From: Escherichia phage DCP548
Strand: one strand, 5' to 3'
Sequence record: PQ671645.1
DNA: 64,000 nt
The position numbers and the translations under genes are program-made. Below, in pieces: positions 1 through 6,458 of this stretch. The notes below the pieces were generated by a model. The model did no database searches. It had not been told where the DNA came from and was given only the letters and a program-made list of their open reading frames with translations. The first letter of the stretch is position 1, and each line of letters begins with the position of its first letter.

Positions 1-762
1 AATCTTGAGGACGAACAAAACGAGTTCTCAACCAGTTAAATGGGTCTGTATCACGAGCTTTAATACAGTGCTGCATAGGATATCCGTTTAAGGATTTAGC
101 ATCATCAGCTGTAACATCAGTACTATGGAAAATATAGCAAGAGTCACGATAGCTACAATGTGTTGTATACCCTTTACCAGCATTAGAACAGAACTCATTT
201 ACAAGAACTTCAAATATTATATTGTTCTTATTACAAAACTCTGCTGCACGCTTCAGGAAAGAAACTGAACGGTTCTTATGAATTCCACAGCAGACCTTTT
301 TGATATTATATTGGTCGTGCAAGTATTTGATTTGAGTTACAGCATCGACATGTAGAATTGTTGAAACTTCAATCTCAATGTCTTTATTGACTTCACGAAC
401 AATTTCCATAACAACAGGGTTAGCGATAGTAATACGCCATACGCCTATTGACCAAAGATACTGAACATAATCCTGAATAGCTTTCTTCTTCCACTCAACT
501 AGTTCTCTTTTTGAACCAGGATTTATCGTGTTGAGTGTATAGTTAAAGCAAATACCTAATTCGTTACAACGTTTAACGTAATCTTCTAACATCTTTTTGT
601 CAACGTCAGGAAGCCTAAAATCAGGTCTGGCTGCTACAAAAGCCATTTCTCTTGTAGAGCCGTATACTTCATTTATCAAGCTATTAGGATAAGTTTTATT
701 GAGCTCTACGATTTTATCAAGAAGAGCTAAATCAAAATTCGTTCCGATTTTAAAGGTATTCA
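1..762 (-). CDS. U32-family-like protein, N-terminal 254 aa only (C-terminus lies beyond the window start)
   Basis: Minus-strand ORF from ATG at 762 running off the window edge. Motif pattern YTLNT ... EVSTILHVD ... C-x-n-GKGYTTHCSY resembles U32 (YhbU/RlhA/TrhP) proteins by memory. Confidence 0.45.
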
Positions 763-817
763 TTTTTGCATCTCGCGTTAATTGTTGCGATGGTTTTTGC
801 AGGTCTTACTTAAATTA

Positions 818-1219
818 TTATAGATTCGGTTTATATGATTTAAATGTTTCGAATTCGCCTTTATTCATAAGAGCTTTGAATTCGTCAGGACGCATAGCTT
901 TGTCGTCGATAATCCAATCATATACTGGTTTATGTGTTAGCAAATTATGGTACTTCAAGCCAATGTTTGCCAAGTTCTGAATCAGACTTGGGAGAATGTC
1001 AATTGCTATACGGCCAGGACCTACTGACTTCATACCGCGAGCAGTGTAAAGCGTTATTGTATGCCCTGCATCATACAGGGCATTAATGGCAGACACCATT
1101 TCGACGTCTGGTTTGAAGTTCACGTAATCACGATTGTTATTCCACTCTGTTATACAATCATCGACATCAAAACAAAGATTAAGCATGTTTTCTACACGGT
1201 GCATTAGATTCGTTCCCAT
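818..1219 (-). CDS. HAD-superfamily phosphatase (KdsC/GmhB-like sugar-phosphate phosphatase)
   Basis: 133 aa. Motif I CFDVDDCIT (DxD), conserved K, and DD motif (WIIDDKA). Confidence 0.55.
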   Translation of the reverse strand: MGTNLMHRVENMLNLCFDVDDCITEWNNNRDYVNFKPDVEMVSAINALYDAGHTITLYTARGMKSVGPGRIAIDILPSLIQNLANIGLKYHNLLTHKPVYDWIIDDKAMRPDEFKALMNKGEFETFKSYKPNL

Positions 1220-2889
1220 TGATGAGTGATATCGCCACCGATTGGACGATAGGAAACACCAGTTTCTTTATCAGTTAGTACCCATTTACCAGGATTTTTT
1301 GTAATCAGAGTAGCCGTTACAGGTTCTGCTACGTCATAACTAATAGAGCCGTCCTGAAGTACACGGCCCATGTTACGTAATTGCTTAGTCAGAAGTTCCA
1401 TACCTTTATAATATGCGGCTACCGCTTTAAGTGGATTATTCTTGAAATAACCACCTAATGCAATCCAGATAATTGCCACTGCCAAATGATGATACTCGTT
1501 AAACGAACTCATCTTTCCATATTTGTAAACTAATGGATTGATGTTAATAGTCACATTACAAGTTGTTTCATCAATAGTAAATTGCCCCCAGGTCGGATTA
1601 GCATTGAATTCATCATAACCTGAAACAGCATAAAGCACTTTAGCTTCATCATACAATTTTGGCCCATAAATCTTGGTTTCGCCAAAATATCCACGAGGGT
1701 CGATAAACTTGACTTCACCATTATCAGTAATCATAGTATTACTAAAGTTCGGGTCACCATGAATAACAGAGTACTGTCCCTGAGAACGGTTATGATAACG
1801 AATAAGGTGTTCTAAAGCTTGTTTCAGCATTGGCTTCAGACGCCCAATCTTAGTGTAGTTCACATGTGTGATTTTACCAAATGAATCAATCAATGGTTGA
1901 ATACTTTCACAACGATCAATAACTTTCGTATAGAACTCTTTAGTGAAATCACGACGAACAGTTTCAGGACTTACAAAATAAGTGTCTGTGCTGAATTTCA
2001 GTGCGTCTAAAATTGCATCAACAATTTGTGGACGAGCAAGACTTGATTTGGATTTAATATATTCAAATGCCGGCTTACCTTTAATGCGTTCCATTTCAAA
2101 GTTATTTTCATTAACAGAAACTAACTGAGGAACTGAATCTGATTTCACTTTAAGATACCATGAAATCTCATCTTTCTGAAGAGCTCGGCCCTGTTCGGTT
2201 AATGCGAATTTAGTTACAGTTTCTTCACCGATTTCAACTGCATTAAAACTACGATTAAGTTCACGAACTTCATGAGCCTTTTCAAGTTTAGGCATATCAC
2301 CTAAATCAATTAGATTCATAAGCTCTGATTTATTGAATGCGCTGCCGTAAAGGAATTCTACGAAATCACGTCCTTTGCAGTATTCATGAATTTCCTCATC
2401 AGTAGAACCCATATAGAATTCCCAGTCTTTGAACTGATAAATTCCTACAACATTACCACCTGTTGAACCTACGTTAGTGATATTTTCACCGTCGAAATTA
2501 TATCGACATTCGTCACCCTTAACATAGATTGCGTTAACATTCCAAGACCATGAACCAAAATCGGGAATAATATCACACCAGTTAACAATTACATTATGGC
2601 CGTCTAAATCTTTGTGCAATTTAGCAAGAGCATAAGCAGAACCATATGCTTCATCAACTGTACGAATAGTCACATTGAACCCTTCTTGCTCACAATAAGC
2701 TCGAACAGTTTCAGCAAATTTTGAATGAACTACTACAATAATTTCGTCTGCGCCAAGGTCAGAATAAATTGTATACAAATTGCTCAGAATAGTGTCTTGT
2801 TTATAGTTAACAAGCACCTTAGGAATATGATGCGTTATTGGATACAAACGAGTTGCCAGTCCAGCACCAAGAATAACAGCTTTTTTCAT
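1204..2889 (-). CDS. Bifunctional sugar-1-phosphate nucleotidyltransferase (N-terminal) / APH-ChoK-like kinase (C-terminal)
   Basis: 561 aa. N-terminal ILGAGLATRL nucleotidyltransferase signature; C-terminal HGDPNFSNTMI ... IDPRGYFG Brenner-type kinase motif. Confidence 0.6.
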   Translation of the reverse strand: MKKAVILGAGLATRLYPITHHIPKVLVNYKQDTILSNLYTIYSDLGADEIIVVVHSKFAETVRAYCEQEGFNVTIRTVDEAYGSAYALAKLHKDLDGHNVIVNWCDIIPDFGSWSWNVNAIYVKGDECRYNFDGENITNVGSTGGNVVGIYQFKDWEFYMGSTDEEIHEYCKGRDFVEFLYGSAFNKSELMNLIDLGDMPKLEKAHEVRELNRSFNAVEIGEETVTKFALTEQGRALQKDEISWYLKVKSDSVPQLVSVNENNFEMERIKGKPAFEYIKSKSSLARPQIVDAILDALKFSTDTYFVSPETVRRDFTKEFYTKVIDRCESIQPLIDSFGKITHVNYTKIGRLKPMLKQALEHLIRYHNRSQGQYSVIHGDPNFSNTMITDNGEVKFIDPRGYFGETKIYGPKLYDEAKVLYAVSGYDEFNANPTWGQFTIDETTCNVTININPLVYKYGKMSSFNEYHHLAVAIIWIALGGYFKNNPLKAVAAYYKGMELLTKQLRNMGRVLQDGSISYDVAEPVTATLITKNPGKWVLTDKETGVSYRPIGGDITHQWERI

Positions 2890-3070
2890 GTTGTGGTCCT
2901 CATTGGTAAGTAGGAGTATTGTACACTATTCTAGTTAAAGCATTCATACTTTGCTTGTAGTCCAATCATAATCCATCCAATTACAAGTGTTGGAATCATT
3001 ACCGGAGCCGTTAAGCTCCAGTAGATAGTCATGACAAGCATCAATAGTAAAAGTCCTATTGTTATTGCTT

Positions 3071-3706
3071 TCATTGTTCGCCTCGTAACATGGCACCTAG
3101 TGCACCGCCAGGGTGGAACTTAAGGAAATCATTAGAGGTAAATCCACGTTCAGACGAAAGGTTGATAGCAAACGTATCGATAAGCGCTAACAACAATGTA
3201 GTGGACATTGTCGGAGCTAAAGAGTTCTCGTCAACTTCTACAGCGATACCGGTACAGAACGTATAATCAAAAAGAGCTTCGTATTCTTGTGGAATGTCAG
3301 GGTTACAATGCAACAGAATCTGTTTGACGTTCGGACGAATCATTTTAAGATGCTTAGCCACGCCTATCATTTCTTCAGTTTTACCAGAACGACTAATATG
3401 AATCAACACATCATTAGGCGCAATGAATCCTGCATCACCGTGAGAATAATGCCCGGTGTTCAAGTACATACTCGGGATACCGAGTGAAGCAAATGTCTCA
3501 GAAGCTTTAGTTGCGATATTAGCGTTCTTACCAACACCTGTAATAATTACACGACTTTCATAATTACTAAGTCCAGGGCGTCGAAGAGTTTCTAGAATAG
3601 CATTATAACGAGCAGGGTTTTGACTAATTACTTTGGCCATAGCGGCCAAAGAAGAAGCTTGTTTTATGATTGCGTCAATAGCGATAGTAATAGGAGTAGT
3701 TTTCAT
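3071..3706 (-). CDS. D-arabinose-5-phosphate isomerase, SIS domain only (KdsD/GutQ/KpsF-like, no CBS pair)
   Basis: 211 aa. Block-for-block resemblance to the KdsD SIS domain: TFASLGIPS, HGDAGFI, ISRSGKTEE, LAPTMSTT, FHPGGALG. Confidence 0.7.
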   Translation of the reverse strand: MKTTPITIAIDAIIKQASSLAAMAKVISQNPARYNAILETLRRPGLSNYESRVIITGVGKNANIATKASETFASLGIPSMYLNTGHYSHGDAGFIAPNDVLIHISRSGKTEEMIGVAKHLKMIRPNVKQILLHCNPDIPQEYEALFDYTFCTGIAVEVDENSLAPTMSTTLLLALIDTFAINLSSERGFTSNDFLKFHPGGALGAMLRGEQ

Positions 3707-3746
3707 ATTTCTCTCATTTAATTAGTTTACCGTCCATGTCATTATA

Positions 3747-6458
3747 TCAAAAATCGAACATATCGAATAGAGATGCTTTCTTCTCGTAATCGAGTTTCGC
3801 TGCTGATGTGAATCCTTCAAGTGGTTTAATAAATGTCTTCTCAAGGAGAACAGTGTAGTCCATCCAATGAAGTACGTCGTCTTTAATTAAATCTGTGATT
3901 TCAGTACCAGAAGGCCATGCGATACATTTATCACCGAATGGGTTTCCTTCGCGTAAAGGCAGAACATATACTTTTTCACCTTCTACAACTTGCGGTGCAT
4001 CGATATTACCTTTGATAGCCCGGTTATACGTCAGAATTCCACGAATATGGAACGGGCATTTGGGACCAGGGAATCCACCTACATCATATTTAGCAATGTT
4101 ATTCGCAGAAGATACCGACGCGATGCTAATATAATTCAATTGACGGAATTCTTTTTCAAACTCTTTAAAATATTCTTGTAATGATTCTTCACCTTCTTGA
4201 AGCATACGACGAATACATTCTTTAAGAGCTTTCTGTACTGCTTTAGGAGTCGAAGATTTCTGAGTCTCTAGACCCATGATTTTGAGTTTAGGCTCAGCGT
4301 AACGAGTACCTTCCATATCCCACACGTTTAATGCATAACGTTTCTTACCAGTCCAGAATCCACCAATACCTTTAGAACCGAGTGGAGGACCAGCGATAGC
4401 TTCTCGGTCCATGAACATTAAGTGTTGTTTATTGTTCATGTATTCACACATTTCACGGAAACCTCTATCAATAGCTGGTTCCATACGTTCACGTGCAAAC
4501 TTATCTAAGAAGTCTACCCAATGGTTGGTATCACGGAATTTAGATTCACCAACCTTATCGATAATTTTATCAGCAGATACGTAAATAGAGTCTGTATCAC
4601 CATAAAGAACGAAAGCTTCACCTTCTGTGCCACAAACTTCATTCAGATATTCATTAACTTTACGTTCAATCCACTGTAAAGCCATTTGACCAAATGTTGT
4701 GATTGCAGTAGCATTACGCAAATCATAATAACGAAACCAAACGTTGCCAAGTGCACCATAAAGTGAGTTGATAAGCAATTTACGGTTAATTTGGGCAGTC
4801 ATACCTGCAACTTCAGTACGTTGAGCTCTAAACAACATTTCATTAAGAGATTTAGCAGACAACTTTTTAATCTTTTCTTTAATCTCATCGCTGAAGTCGA
4901 AACGATAATCAACATCTAATGGTTCGTCAACAGAAAGATTAGGATTATGCAATGCCTCTTTAATTATTTCACCATTACGTTGAGCTGCAAGCATGTAACC
5001 TTTATGTTCTTTACGTTGATTAAAGACCTTAGTGATTTCAGTTGGAACTACACCATCACGGTCTTTATAATACATCATGCCGTTAGGAGAACAACTGTAC
5101 ACATCAGAAGGACGTTCAGCAACAGCGTTAATATAATCATGCAATGGAGCTACTTTAAACGTTCCTGCTATTGTTTCTGGGCTAATATTCACTTGGCGAA
5201 TAATACTTGGATACAGAGATGTAAGGTCGAAACTCATTACATATTTGTATCGATTTGGAATAGGTTCCTTAACAAAAGCGCCGGGATAAGGTTGAACCGG
5301 GTGAGAACGACCTTGTGGAATCACCTTGTTCTGCTCTTTAAGGCTATTAAAAATAATAGCATCCCATGTTTTAATTGGGCTAAACACAGATTGAATCTGT
5401 ATCTTAGCATAATAACCCATGTCCAAACTCAAGTTGATGAACTGACGCTTAGCATCAATTTGCAATACACGATACACATCGATAATGTTATAAGAAATAT
5501 ATCGTTGGTGATTGCTTTCACGAAGCTTAGAAATAGGGCCGTCATATTTCAGTTTACCAACGTTCAATTCAAATTCTGAAATGTAATCCAGAGAATATGA
5601 CGGCTGATTGGTAAAAGAGAATTTTTTGTAAAGGTCAATGTAATCAAGAACAGAGATACCGAATAATGTAATGATTTCACGAGAACCATACATGTTTTCG
5701 ATAACTTTAACACGAGTTTTACGATGTGGTGATAAACGTTTCGCAGTAGATTCGCCAAAAATATTCTTGATTCGGTTATACACATATGGAATATCAAATG
5801 ACTCAACGTTCCATCCAGTCAAAATGACAGGAGTTTTCTGTTGCCAGAAGTTGAGATATTCCATCAACAATTCTTTTTCGTTATCGAACGGCATATAAAT
5901 GATTTTATCGATAATTTCGGATGGAACTTCATCACCGCCTTGTTCTTGAAGCTTAGCAGCGATTTCAATAGACCATTCTTCTACATTACCATATGGAGAA
6001 TTCAATAGATCAAATACGTAGAACCTGTCGTCAATTGAGTCATAATGGGTGATAGCATCAATCGGATGTTTTGCTTGTGACGGCTCAGGGAACCCATCTG
6101 GAGATGTTACTTCGATGTCGAAGTTAGCCACACGAATTTTTGTATGGTCGTATTTGATTTCATAGTTATAAGTGTCAGACAAATACGCCAATTTGAAATC
6201 GTCCATGCCAAGTGCTTCAAGTCCGATATCTTCCATGCGTTTAATCCATTGTGAGGCATCACGCATATTGGCGAACAACTTACGAGTACACGGCTTACCG
6301 TAGATATCGAAATATTTCGTAGCCTGACTTTCTGGACAATGAGCAAACAGTGATGGTTTATATTCTACTTCACGAGTACGTTCACGGCCGTTAGAATCGA
6401 TGTAACGTTCAAAAATTGAATCACCAATCTGTTCAACCGTTAAGTAAAATTCTTTCAT
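3747..6458 (-). CDS. 43: DNA polymerase (family B)
   Basis: 903 aa; recognisable T4/RB69 gp43 sequence with exonuclease and polymerase motifs (FDIE, YGDTDS). Confidence 0.97.
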   Translation of the reverse strand: MKEFYLTVEQIGDSIFERYIDSNGRERTREVEYKPSLFAHCPESQATKYFDIYGKPCTRKLFANMRDASQWIKRMEDIGLEALGMDDFKLAYLSDTYNYEIKYDHTKIRVANFDIEVTSPDGFPEPSQAKHPIDAITHYDSIDDRFYVFDLLNSPYGNVEEWSIEIAAKLQEQGGDEVPSEIIDKIIYMPFDNEKELLMEYLNFWQQKTPVILTGWNVESFDIPYVYNRIKNIFGESTAKRLSPHRKTRVKVIENMYGSREIITLFGISVLDYIDLYKKFSFTNQPSYSLDYISEFELNVGKLKYDGPISKLRESNHQRYISYNIIDVYRVLQIDAKRQFINLSLDMGYYAKIQIQSVFSPIKTWDAIIFNSLKEQNKVIPQGRSHPVQPYPGAFVKEPIPNRYKYVMSFDLTSLYPSIIRQVNISPETIAGTFKVAPLHDYINAVAERPSDVYSCSPNGMMYYKDRDGVVPTEITKVFNQRKEHKGYMLAAQRNGEIIKEALHNPNLSVDEPLDVDYRFDFSDEIKEKIKKLSAKSLNEMLFRAQRTEVAGMTAQINRKLLINSLYGALGNVWFRYYDLRNATAITTFGQMALQWIERKVNEYLNEVCGTEGEAFVLYGDTDSIYVSADKIIDKVGESKFRDTNHWVDFLDKFARERMEPAIDRGFREMCEYMNNKQHLMFMDREAIAGPPLGSKGIGGFWTGKKRYALNVWDMEGTRYAEPKLKIMGLETQKSSTPKAVQKALKECIRRMLQEGEESLQEYFKEFEKEFRQLNYISIASVSSANNIAKYDVGGFPGPKCPFHIRGILTYNRAIKGNIDAPQVVEGEKVYVLPLREGNPFGDKCIAWPSGTEITDLIKDDVLHWMDYTVLLEKTFIKPLEGFTSAAKLDYEKKASLFDMFDF

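Follow-up and report, generated by a model that had tools for sequence, protein, structure and literature searches.

Gene organization at the left end of the window

The window, a stretch of 64,000 nucleotides of Escherichia phage DCP548 (PQ671645.1), opens inside a real and strongly conserved gene of an RB69-like coliphage. The reading frame is located on the minus strand and runs from an ATG at 763..761 to the left window edge, covering 254 codons without a stop. In a previous sequence-only reading, this gene had been placed at positions 1–762; the gene itself was confirmed, but the coordinates were one base off and the true span is 2..763. The statement that only the N-terminal 254 amino acids are visible was correct, the remaining approximately 132 amino acids being located beyond the window edge. 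The full-length product comprises approximately 386 amino acids and is the orthologue of RB69 gp50 (RB69ORF050c). The following features were assigned:

2..763, minus strand: U32-family gene, N-terminal 254 codons, cut by the window edge (translation, Pfam, PHROG, orthologues)
65..67, minus strand: codon of C233 (YPMQHC), aligned with the UbiU ligand C232
137..190, minus strand: cysteine-rich segment NEFC192-x10-C203-SYRDS-C209, invariant in 34–45 homologues (hhalign)
350..364, minus strand: STILH motif, amino acids 134–138, aligned with the H-x-S-x-Q strand of UbiU/RlhA
527..541, minus strand: YTLNT motif, amino acids 75–79, aligned with the xxLNT strand of the E. coli U32 proteins
770..772, minus strand: alternative in-frame start ATG (MQKMNTF...), 9 nt upstream, chosen by RefSeq for phage F2
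817..844, minus strand: sigma-70-like promoter match (TTTAAA-16-TATAAT) upstream of the U32 gene
818..1219, minus strand: small HAD-like phosphatase, orthologue of RB69 gp51 and HY126 AfhF (open reading frame; annotated orthologue in F2)
1204..2889, minus strand: bifunctional nucleotidyltransferase/kinase, orthologue of RB69 gp52:53 and AfhE (Pfam NTP_transferase and kinase-like matches)
3071..3706, minus strand: SIS-domain arabinose-5-phosphate isomerase, orthologue of RB69 gp55 (Pfam SIS; annotation; function from PMC13326640)
3747..6458, minus strand: DNA polymerase gp43, end of the modification cluster (open reading frame; annotation of the 98.5%-identical F2 region)

The window fragment matched Pfam PF01136 (Peptidase_U32) with 28.7 bits (E = 1e-6, cut-off 22.4) and PHROG 5757 with an E-value of 3.6e-178. 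It is 99.6% to 100% identical to the orthologues in L012 and in phage F2 (L001), the latter being annotated as 'peptidase, RB69ORF050c'. The dN/dS values against the orthologues were between 0.02 and 0.08 with saturated synonymous sites, and the cross-genus identity of the U32 protein amounted to 83–89% (DNA polymerase: 65–79%). The Pfam and PHROG scores and the low dN/dS values indicate that the U32 frame did not arise by chance. The promoter match at 817..844 is regarded as a lead only, because the number of matches in a promoter and terminator scan of positions 1–3800 was no higher than in shuffled sequence.

The U32 gene is located between the arabinose-activating genes and gp48, which lies two genes away in the orthologous locus. 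The Afh genes and the ara-5hoC phages are reportedly covered by He et al. 2026 (Nat Chem Biol) and Mahler et al. 2025 (Cell Host Microbe). RB69 DNA carries arabosylated 5-hydroxycytosine (5hoC), and gp48, a ThyA homologue, is a flavin (FMN)/O2-dependent 5hodCMP synthase according to 18O2 labelling (PMC13326640). AfhF converts Araf-1,5-P2 to Araf-1-P, and AfhE makes UDP-arabinofuranose (PMC13326640). The window copy of the AfhF orthologue (818..1219) gave no match in Pfam. For RB69 virion DNA, only arabinosylated 5hoC forms were reported (PMC13326640), which fits either a gp50 product duplicating that of gp48 or a gp50 that is inactive in air. Among the papers covered, none showed a function for gp50, and a search for work joining U32 proteins, prephenate or chorismate mutase with phage DNA modification returned no paper linking a U32 gene to such modification; neither Thomas 2018 nor the Thanatos paper addresses what the U32 gene does. 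Base hydroxylation by a phage enzyme, which according to the sequence-only reading would be new chemistry for a phage, can no longer be called so, since 5-hydroxycytosine in RB69 DNA and gp48 were published in 2025–2026; an oxygen-independent second route would be new.

Assignment to the U32 family

The full-length orthologue, which is 99.6% identical to the window fragment over 254 amino acids, matched PF01136 with 42.4 bits at residues 94–286, and four distant homologues matched with 35–46 bits (cut-off 22.4 in each case). An alignment with E. coli UbiU, UbiV, RlhA and TrhP using hhalign covered 207 columns with a probability of 96.2% (E = 2.6e-9) and included the blocks xLNT, S-x-Q and K-[IV]-x-G-R-x-x-S-x-x-Y. 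The window protein is truncated by the window edge, and the fold was tested on the 87%-identical orthologue P0002, for which an AF2 model with a pLDDT of 91.8 and a pTM of 0.91 was obtained. The top PDB match of this model in Foldseek was the U32 protein Mk0906 (5D88, E = 7e-8), the sole solved U32 structure found, which shares 12% identity with the phage protein; the lower matches were generic TIM barrels. Searches of PDB sequences with the protein or a 34-sequence profile retrieved no U32 structure, the only match being a spurious one to BIM1 (E = 0.008), so that the kinship to 5D88 is visible by fold only. The full-length profile search, hhalign and Foldseek all keep the protein in U32 rather than in an unrelated TIM-barrel family, as the sequence-only reading had proposed.

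None of the characterised subfamilies accommodates the protein. The UbiU equivalog NF047963 (NCBIfam) was matched with 19.4 bits at a cut-off of 440, and DUF3656, the signature of RlhA, was absent from the Pfam results for the full-length protein and the four distant homologues. TrhP has an additional U32 C-terminal domain with a Pfam family of its own; in the full-length phage protein, Pfam identified PF01136 alone and no U32_C domain. Similarity to thymidylate synthase, as expected for a ThyA-like 5hodCMP synthase, was not found in the U32 protein either. Judged from the profiles and the modelled fold, the protein is a divergent, putative iron–sulfur enzyme of the U32 family outside every characterised U32 subfamily. 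At E ≤ 1e-30, the proposed viral clade of the protein comprises 459 cluster representatives at 50% identity.

The motifs that had been named beforehand (YTLNT, STxxH and C-x-n-C-SY) are present in the translation as YTLNT, STILH and C192...C203-SY...C209. Among the family homologues, FNYT.N is invariant or nearly so, and S134 of STILH is invariant. A check for cysteine ligands of a 4Fe–4S cluster, which had been suggested together with the motifs, revealed conserved candidates: C203, C209 and C233 are invariant and were aligned by hhalign with C169, C176 and C232 of UbiU, whose four Fe–S ligands are C169, C176, C193 and C232 (PMC6747719). Across 45 homologues, C203 and C209 do not vary, and their spacing is CX5C versus CX6C in UbiU. 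No phage residue was aligned with C193, so that three of the four UbiU ligands are matched; the invariant C192, located inside a 10-residue insertion, is a candidate for the fourth Fe–S ligand. An additional invariant knot, C340-x4-C345-x3-C349-x2-C352, is found in the C-terminal part beyond the window edge.

Chorismate mutase genes adjacent to the U32 gene

Chorismate mutase makes prephenate. In most related T4-like genera, a gene encoding an AroQ chorismate mutase of 75–79 amino acids is located between the U32 gene and gp48, and in Entb_45 it overlaps the stop codon of the U32 gene. The phage protein matched Pfam CM_2 with 40.9 bits (cut-off 27), and the PheA active-site positions R11, R28, K39, S84 and Q88 are conserved. 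Using tblastn, the gene was detected in 51 phage records, all of them from T4-like genera with the U32 gene; 10 of 12 representative lineages possess it. The Mosigvirus lineage of the window is devoid of it and carries a 49-amino-acid open reading frame lacking similarity to chorismate mutase in its place; no remnant was detected in this frame or the intergenic DNA, even by tblastn at E ≤ 10. A DAHP synthase–chorismate mutase fusion or a stand-alone chorismate mutase is encoded within 1–2 kb of the U32 gene in five distant loci (L037, L040, L041, L053 and L056). Two contexts with DAHP synthase only are ambiguous, because KDO8P synthases, whose substrate is arabinose-5-P, fall under Pfam DAHP_synth_1 as well. 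The pairing of U32 and chorismate mutase genes is newly noted here, as are the gene neighbourhoods of the distant homologues and the lack of the U32 gene in gp48-carrying Acinetobacter and Rhizobium phages. The chorismate mutase neighbours and the clusters for deoxynucleotide metabolism and DNA glycosylation strengthen the earlier guess of nucleobase hydroxylation, which we continue to treat as an inferred function.

Distribution and distant homologues

The U32 gene was found in 221 phage records, whose hosts all belong to the Enterobacterales or Shewanella and whose genera are all also among the gp48 matches; these hosts are facultative anaerobes. The gp48-carrying records of Acinetobacter (57 of 57) and Rhizobium (20 of 20) phages lack the U32 gene. 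In the Dhakaviruses, which infect E. coli, gp48 and the arabinose genes are present and the U32 and chorismate mutase genes are not, which means that the U32 gene is not needed by every gut coliphage of this type.

Distant homologues from phages and MAGs are 40–58% identical to the window protein. Their flanking genes encode gp46:47-like glycosyltransferase, A5P isomerase, AfhE-like enzyme, TAGT, Tmk-like kinases, dUTPase/DCD and dCMP deaminase. Among 124 neighbour proteins scanned from 23 loci, 10 were Tmk-like kinases; dNK, dUTPase/DCD, dCMP deaminase and NT5C were also detected. API and an AfhE-like enzyme co-occur with the U32 homologue in about 14 distant loci, while many homologue clusters contain no arabinose genes and instead TAGT/GLF, a glycosyltransferase only, or a kinase–methyltransferase pair, as in the kinase–methyltransferase–U32 module of Phocaeicola faecalis (L063). 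A ThyA-like gene was found within ±10 kb in one of about 30 distant loci, and ThyA-like genes farther away are possible. The homologues from genomes and MAGs belong mostly to obligate anaerobes (Oscillospiraceae, Romboutsia, Tannerella, Phocaeicola, Gastranaerophilaceae); this association is derived from host names in phage and genome collections only.

Proposed function of the phage U32 enzyme

We lean towards the reading that the gp50 orthologue is an O2-independent, prephenate-dependent dCMP C5-hydroxylase and the anaerobic twin of gp48. The substrate, product, prephenate use and oxygen independence that we infer for the enzyme, as well as the mechanism, are drawn by analogy with UbiU/V, RlhA and TrhP. 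The most likely substrate would be dCMP, with hydroxylation preceding replication; dC that is already part of the DNA is a less likely one. A [4Fe–4S] centre, with C192, C203, C209 and C233 as probable ligands, would mediate a two-electron oxidation of the pyrimidine, and the C-terminal four-cysteine site might be a second site relaying electrons. Prephenate would decarboxylate and aromatise to phenylpyruvate and give hydroxide to C5, so that the oxygen would originate from prephenate and not from O2. In the lineage of the window, prephenate would be supplied by PheA/TyrA of the host, and in most sister genera by the phage's own chorismate mutase. The product, 5-hydroxy-dCMP, would be the same as that of gp48 and would subsequently be phosphorylated, incorporated into DNA and arabinosylated. 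Such a phage would form one base by two routes, one with and one without oxygen, similar to ubiquinone synthesis in E. coli with UbiI/H/F and UbiU/V.

In UbiU/UbiV, prephenate is the oxygen donor, and the pair forms the anaerobic half of a dual pathway, the aerobic half of which consists of flavin/O2 enzymes (2024 PNAS paper). The U32 fold and the three UbiU ligands aligned with invariant phage cysteines link them to the phage protein, in which the [4Fe–4S] cluster that UbiU/UbiV bind on conserved cysteines is a putative one; however, UbiU and UbiV work as a heterodimer together with lipid-binding UbiT and have a polyprenyl-phenol substrate, whereas the phage encodes a single gene with the extra C-terminal site. 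RlhA (YdcP), the 5-hydroxycytidine-2501 synthase of E. coli 23S rRNA, has the U32 domain in common with the phage protein, introduces a C5 hydroxyl on cytosine and requires Fe–S biogenesis and prephenate. Two U32-motif cysteines and further C-terminal ones are essential in RlhA, and the phage protein likewise possesses U32-motif cysteines and a C-terminal cluster. In contrast, RlhA is a DUF3656-containing protein of 653 amino acids whose substrate is a ribosomal assembly intermediate; the shorter phage protein resembles RlhA by profile methods only and is encoded among deoxynucleotide genes. TrhP (YegQ) is a prephenate-dependent U32 hydroxylase that forms ho5U34 in tRNA, again at a pyrimidine C5, and belongs to a dual pathway with the alternative, O2-dependent enzyme TrhO; it differs from the phage protein in its tRNA substrate and in the C-terminal domain. 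RB69 gp48, DLP3 gp80 and the HY126 homologue would share the product 5-hydroxy-dCMP and the pathway with the phage U32 enzyme. The thymidylate synthase fold of gp48 is unrelated to the U32 fold, its cofactor is FMN and its oxygen comes from O2. Phages infecting strict aerobes also encode gp48, and these have no U32 gene.

Several observations speak against the preferred reading: the CX5C spacing, the alignment of only three of four ligands, the missing chorismate mutase in the window's lineage and the Dhakaviruses without the gene. Moreover, the nucleic-acid U32 enzymes characterised so far have RNA polymers and not mononucleotides as substrates, and this precedent favours a hydroxylation of cytosine already present in phage DNA, after replication, by which unmodified dC would be mopped up or an anaerobic route on the polymer would be provided. 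The C-terminal knot could accordingly be a nucleic-acid-binding zinc ribbon, and in several distant loci the U32 gene forms an operon with a DNA glycosyltransferase gene (TAGT or gp46:47-like). We nevertheless consider hydroxylation of the polymer unlikely, as the recurrent neighbours are mononucleotide enzymes, a signature of pre-replicative pathways, and the RNA-binding extensions of RlhA (DUF3656) and TrhP are missing. Hydroxylation of host or phage RNA (ho5U34 in tRNA or ho5C2501 in 23S rRNA) for tuning translation, with the location in the cluster being incidental, has its closest functional precedents in RlhA and TrhP, and T4-like phages encode tRNAs. It is very improbable in view of the unmatched subfamily signatures (UbiU, DUF3656, U32_C), the RlhA and TrhP already owned by the host, the steady linkage to deoxynucleotide and DNA-glycosylation genes in unrelated phages and the absence of the U32 gene from T4-like phages without 5hoC genes.

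A contribution to the sugar, as one step of UDP-arabinose or glycan synthesis or as an accessory to it, is suggested by the position beside the arabinose-activating genes, the API and AfhE-like genes in about 14 distant loci, the description 'putative enzyme involved in UDP-arabinose biosynthesis' in a BASEL phage record and the label 'sugar or heterocycle reductase' for gp50 in Table 1 of the RB69 study (PMC13326640). However, the UDP-Araf route is complete with API, AfhE and AfhF, and Acinetobacter phages such as DLP3, which have the arabinose genes, make ara-5hoC without the U32 gene, as is predicted for the Dhakaviruses (PMC13326640). No U32 enzyme with a sugar substrate is known, many homologue clusters are free of arabinose genes, and the linkage to chorismate mutase would have no role; sugar hydroxylation, the alternative offered by the sequence-only reading, is therefore quite unlikely. 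Least credible is a genuine collagenase-like peptidase, although the family name and many phage records ('peptidase', 'putative protease', 'collagenase-like protease') state this and collagenolytic activity of some U32 proteins is reported in the RlhA literature: U32 proteolysis has no known catalytic mechanism, the invariant residues form cysteine clusters of the kind seen in Fe–S proteins, and the surrounding genes belong to nucleotide metabolism and not to morphogenesis or lysis. Both the protease and the UDP-arabinose step were rejected for the reasons given.

Beyond the coliphages, the hydroxylation of dCMP might be one instance of a wider scheme, which we put forward tentatively and with some reserve. 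The phage protein may found a distinct viral U32 clade that generates 5-hydroxypyrimidine deoxynucleotides with prephenate and without O2, the hydroxyl serving as a handle for arabinosylation, glycosylation (TAGT/GLF) or O-methylation (kinase–methyltransferase). In phages of strict anaerobes, the enzyme would be the sole hydroxylase, and in RB69-like coliphages the anaerobic twin of the flavin/O2 enzyme.

The one route to phage 5-hydroxycytosine known so far depends on O2, yet such phages and their hosts live for the most part under anaerobic conditions. If the proposal is true, it would explain the full DNA modification of gut coliphages without oxygen. It would add a third pair of a flavin/O2 and a U32/prephenate enzyme to those for ubiquinone and tRNA ho5U, the first for DNA, and the enzyme would be the first of the U32 family in DNA modification, in viruses and with a small soluble substrate. 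As of 2024, in vitro reconstitution of a U32 hydroxylase had not been achieved (2024 PNAS paper). A membrane lipid, a ribosome precursor and tRNA are the substrates known so far; dCMP, by contrast, is soluble and commercially available and, as a substrate, would open the U32 mechanism to direct tests. The distant homologues suggest that phages of anaerobes carry uncharacterised DNA hypermodifications, with 5-methoxy pyrimidines or other glycosylated ones possibly among them. For phage therapy, oxygen and the aromatic amino acid pathway of the host could both influence the modification status and, with it, how sensitive the phage is to restriction and type IV systems.

The U32 gene and its placement in the family

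The gene at the left edge of the window encodes a U32-family protein, and its full-length sequence (386 aa) was taken from the locus of phage F2 (L001).

2..763 (-): U32-family frame of 254 codons, open to the left window edge, ATG at 763..761
L001:5606-6763 (-): full-length U32 gene in phage F2, bearing a C-terminal Cys knot

The span 1-762 proposed in the sequence-only reading was off by one base; an alternative in-frame ATG (772..770), 9 nt upstream, is the RefSeq start in F2. RB69-like T-even coliphages (e.g., F2, JS09, HX01, and phi25-307) share 98.5% identity with the window, and the gene is an already known annotated ORF, the orthologue of RB69ORF050c (alias gp50). In the accessible literature, no function shown for gp50 was found. 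Earlier papers mention just "homologs among peptidases" or omit the gene, and the RB69 study (PMC13326640) lists it only as a table entry, "Sugar or heterocycle reductase," undiscussed in the text. A literature search for U32, prephenate, or chorismate mutase together with phage returned nothing relevant.

The window fragment by itself scored 28.7 bits against Pfam Peptidase_U32 (cut-off 22.4) and matched PHROG 5757 ("peptidase") with E=3.6e-178; the full-length F2 protein reached 42.4 bits over residues 94-286. The U32 motifs named from the sequence alone were all recovered (YTLNT at aa 75-79, STILH at aa 134-138, and EFC192...HC203SY...SC209, after which C233 follows). Neither the sequence nor a 34-sequence profile matched a U32 chain in the PDB. 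The profile recovered 1,669 of 1.84 billion cluster representatives at E<=1e-3 (459 at E<=1e-30) and therefore does not reach canonical U32 proteins; judged by such comparisons, the phage protein is very divergent. Profile-profile comparison (hhalign) with UbiU, UbiV, RlhA, and TrhP of E. coli gave a probability of 96.2% (E=2.6e-9, 207 columns). For the 87%-identical orthologue P0002, AlphaFold2 gave a confident model (pLDDT 91.8, pTM 0.91), whose top PDB match is the U32 structure 5D88 (E=7e-8), a match also reported by the RB69 authors (PMC13326640). The full-length Pfam score, the profile-profile comparison, and the fold match uphold the assignment to the U32 family. The UbiU equivalog scored 19 bits against a cut-off of 440, outside that subfamily definition, and neither DUF3656 nor the U32 C-terminal domain was found. 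The phage protein fits no existing subfamily definition and represents a new subfamily within U32.

Conserved cysteines

Ten cysteines are invariant in alignments of 34-45 homologues. Six are located in the body of the protein (C158, C177, C192, C203, C209, and C233), whereas a C-terminal knot, C340-x4-C345-x3-C349-x2-C352 (residues 340-352, invariant in 45/45 homologues), lies beyond the window. The conserved cysteines about which the first reading had asked are thus present, and hhalign placed C203, C209, and C233 on C169, C176, and C232 of UbiU, which belong to the four [4Fe-4S] ligands defined by experiment (PMC6747719). The fourth, UbiU C193, had no aligned phage cysteine in this comparison; C192, located within a 10-residue insertion, is the obvious candidate. 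The C-terminal knot may hold a second Fe-S cluster or a zinc ion and recalls the essential C-terminal cysteines of RlhA.

Neighboring genes and the published modification pathway

Upstream of the U32 gene, the window encodes on the same strand a HAD phosphatase and a bifunctional nucleotidyltransferase/kinase (AfhE), followed further upstream by a SIS-domain arabinose-5-phosphate isomerase and DNA polymerase gp43. RB69 DNA contains mono- and poly-arabinosylated 5-hydroxycytosine (5hoC) instead of hydroxymethylcytosine (PMC13326640). The ThyA homologue gp48, which binds flavin and takes up 18O from 18O2, forms 5-hydroxy-dCMP, and UDP-arabinofuranose is made by gp51, gp52:53, and gp55 (PMC13326640). 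Base hydroxylation, regarded in the sequence-only reading as chemistry new to phages, is hence already published for these phages, via a different, O2-dependent enzyme. A 50-aa ORF (2944..3096, minus strand) with no Pfam match lies between the AfhE-like and isomerase genes; phage F2 has a small annotated hypothetical CDS in the corresponding position.

A chorismate mutase gene beside the U32 gene

Prephenate, the product of chorismate mutase (CM), is the co-substrate of U32 hydroxylases. In T4-like phages, one or the other of two small genes occupies the position next to the U32 gene.

L005:8158-8397: AroQ chorismate mutase gene (79 aa) of Enterobacter phage Entb_45, between the U32 and gp48-homologue genes, outside the window
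L001:5457-5606: 49-aa ORF (F2 gp49) in the CM slot, just past the left edge of the window

The Entb_45 CM gene is translationally coupled to the U32 gene, with an overlap of 4 nt at the U32 stop codon. Its product scored 40.9 bits against Pfam CM_2 (cut-off 27) and keeps the PheA active-site positions R11, R28, K39, S84, and Q88, the catalytic residues of EcCM. Minimal CMs of 75-79 aa are found at the same position in L014-L027, and tblastn detected the gene in 51 phage records, always between the U32 and gp48 genes. The hosts are Klebsiella, Serratia (incl. LC53 and 92A1), Yersinia, Enterobacter, Edwardsiella, Erwinia, Pectobacterium, Providencia, Morganella, Shewanella (phage Thanatos), and E. 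coli (phage EcS1). Ten of 12 representative T4-like lineages carry the gene; it is missing from one Klebsiella lineage and from the Mosigvirus-type lineage of the window, where host PheA/TyrA would therefore have to supply prephenate. No similarity to chorismate mutase was detected in the F2 49-aa ORF.

Gene contexts of distant homologues

Metagenomic homologues of the phage U32 protein with 45-58% identity number about 250. Some 35 loci (viral contigs, assemblies, and MAGs) were examined by ORF calling and phmmer with the F2 cluster proteins. A gp46:47-like glycosyltransferase gene lies directly upstream of the U32 gene in eight viral loci, and about 10 loci have the order glycosyltransferase, arabinose-5-phosphate isomerase, AfhE-like enzyme, ~210-aa protein, U32 gene.

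Pfam families among neighbors of U32 homologues (124 proteins, 23 loci)
Thymidylate_kin: 10
DNA pol III alpha: 6
DAHP_synth_1: 5
CM_2: 3
dNK: 3
SIS: 3
dUTPase: 2
dCMP deaminase: 2
UDG: 2
TAGT: 2

The U32 enzyme is constantly accompanied by nucleotide kinases and DNA glycosyltransferases but not by a ThyA-like hydroxylase, for which L028 gave the only match, a weak one, among the distant loci examined. In L037, L040, L041, and L056, a DAHP-synthase-CM fusion is encoded one to two genes upstream of the U32 gene; L053 has a stand-alone CM gene at a distance of 2 kb, and L009 and L026 have a DAHP synthase without CM directly downstream. At least three unrelated gene architectures thus show a link of the U32 gene to prephenate supply.

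The ThyA-like match in L028 (5509-6360, E=9e-6) adjoins a glycosyltransferase gene in a cluster that also has AfhE-like and U32 genes; both hydroxylation routes may exist in this phage. A second conserved context (L003/L054, L060, L061, L062, and L063; MAGs and a Phocaeicola faecalis genome) has the order GP88, guanylate-kinase/SAM-methyltransferase fusion (414-443 aa), ~265-aa protein, U32 gene, which suggests that a nucleotide is hydroxylated and then O-methylated (5-methoxy pyrimidine?). In L003, genes for NT5C, a PnuC-like transporter, dNK, a radical-SAM/SPASM protein, a second U32 protein, and a deoxyribosyltransferase follow. Two unrelated contigs, a phage-like one of 466 kb and one of 86 kb, have radical-SAM/SPASM genes only a few genes away from the U32 homologue (L002, 1314-2249, and L003, 14160-15185). 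In L010 (11098-11997) and L034 (11086-11976), the U32 gene overlaps at its end with a gene for a TET-associated glycosyltransferase (TAGT). Genes for dUTPase/DCD and UDP-galactopyranose mutase lie close by, a ThyA-like gene was not seen, and the arrangement has the look of another system based on glycosylated 5-hydroxypyrimidine.

Distribution and constraint

The U32 gene was found in 221 phage records, all at least 80% identical, with hosts exclusively among Enterobacterales or Shewanella, and gp48 homologues in 373. None of the 57 Acinetobacter phages, 20 Rhizobium phages, and Dhakaviruses among the latter has the U32 gene; arabinosyl-5hoC synthesis in air therefore does not require it. The Dhakavirus UGJNEcP4 (L052) is a natural "deletion" control for the module: its cluster lacks U32 and CM genes, and a SIS isomerase was not detectable. 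The order there is polymerase, imm, 166-aa ORF, AfhE-like, HAD, Tmk-like, ThyA-like, glycosyltransferase, UvsX.

In a species-level genome collection, the subfamily occurred in Oscillospiraceae, Romboutsia, Erysipelotrichales, Gastranaerophilaceae, Tannerella, Phocaeicola faecalis, and a few other MAGs. These groups are for the most part obligate anaerobes. In the records searched, no phage of a strict aerobe carries the U32 gene, and the gene is common in settings closed to O2-dependent chemistry. The gene is under strong constraint, with dN/dS values of 0.02-0.08 against orthologues at saturated synonymous sites. Across T4-like genera (L012-L027 vs. L001), the U32 protein (83-89% identity) is better conserved than DNA polymerase (65-79%), gp48 (73-82%), and every other modification-cluster protein.

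Possible function of gp50

Known U32 enzymes include RlhA, which forms 5-hydroxycytidine in 23S rRNA and requires Fe-S biogenesis and prephenate, and the [4Fe-4S] proteins UbiU/V, which hydroxylate ubiquinone precursors without O2 using prephenate as oxygen donor; the aerobic counterparts of UbiU/V are flavin/O2 mono-oxygenases. By analogy, gp50 would be an oxygen-independent, prephenate-dependent C5-hydroxylase yielding 5-hydroxy-dCMP, an anaerobic counterpart of the flavin/O2 enzyme gp48, a pairing that mirrors UbiU/V versus UbiI/H/F. We hold this, with modest confidence, to be the best-supported explanation; substrate, product, prephenate use, and O2 independence are what we infer beyond the observed family membership, conserved cysteines, linkage, and distribution. 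The arabinosylated forms are the only 5hoC reported in RB69 virion DNA (PMC13326640), which fits the proposal: no additional base would be expected from an enzyme with the product of gp48 or from one that does not work in air. Counting against the proposal, E. coli Dhakaviruses manage without the U32 gene, the CM gene is absent in the lineage of the window, and one Fe-S ligand has no aligned counterpart.

Since the nucleic-acid U32 enzymes known so far work on polymers, action on DNA itself rather than on dCMP is a live, if rather improbable, alternative. A role in UDP-arabinose synthesis fits the data poorly and is unlikely, and with it the sugar substrate that had been considered from the sequence alone. 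The data fit an RNA hydroxylase just as poorly, which we regard as very unlikely, and a protease, the reading to which we give the least credence. As an anaerobic 5-hydroxy-dCMP-forming counterpart of gp48, gp50 would have a role that is new among U32 hydroxylases.
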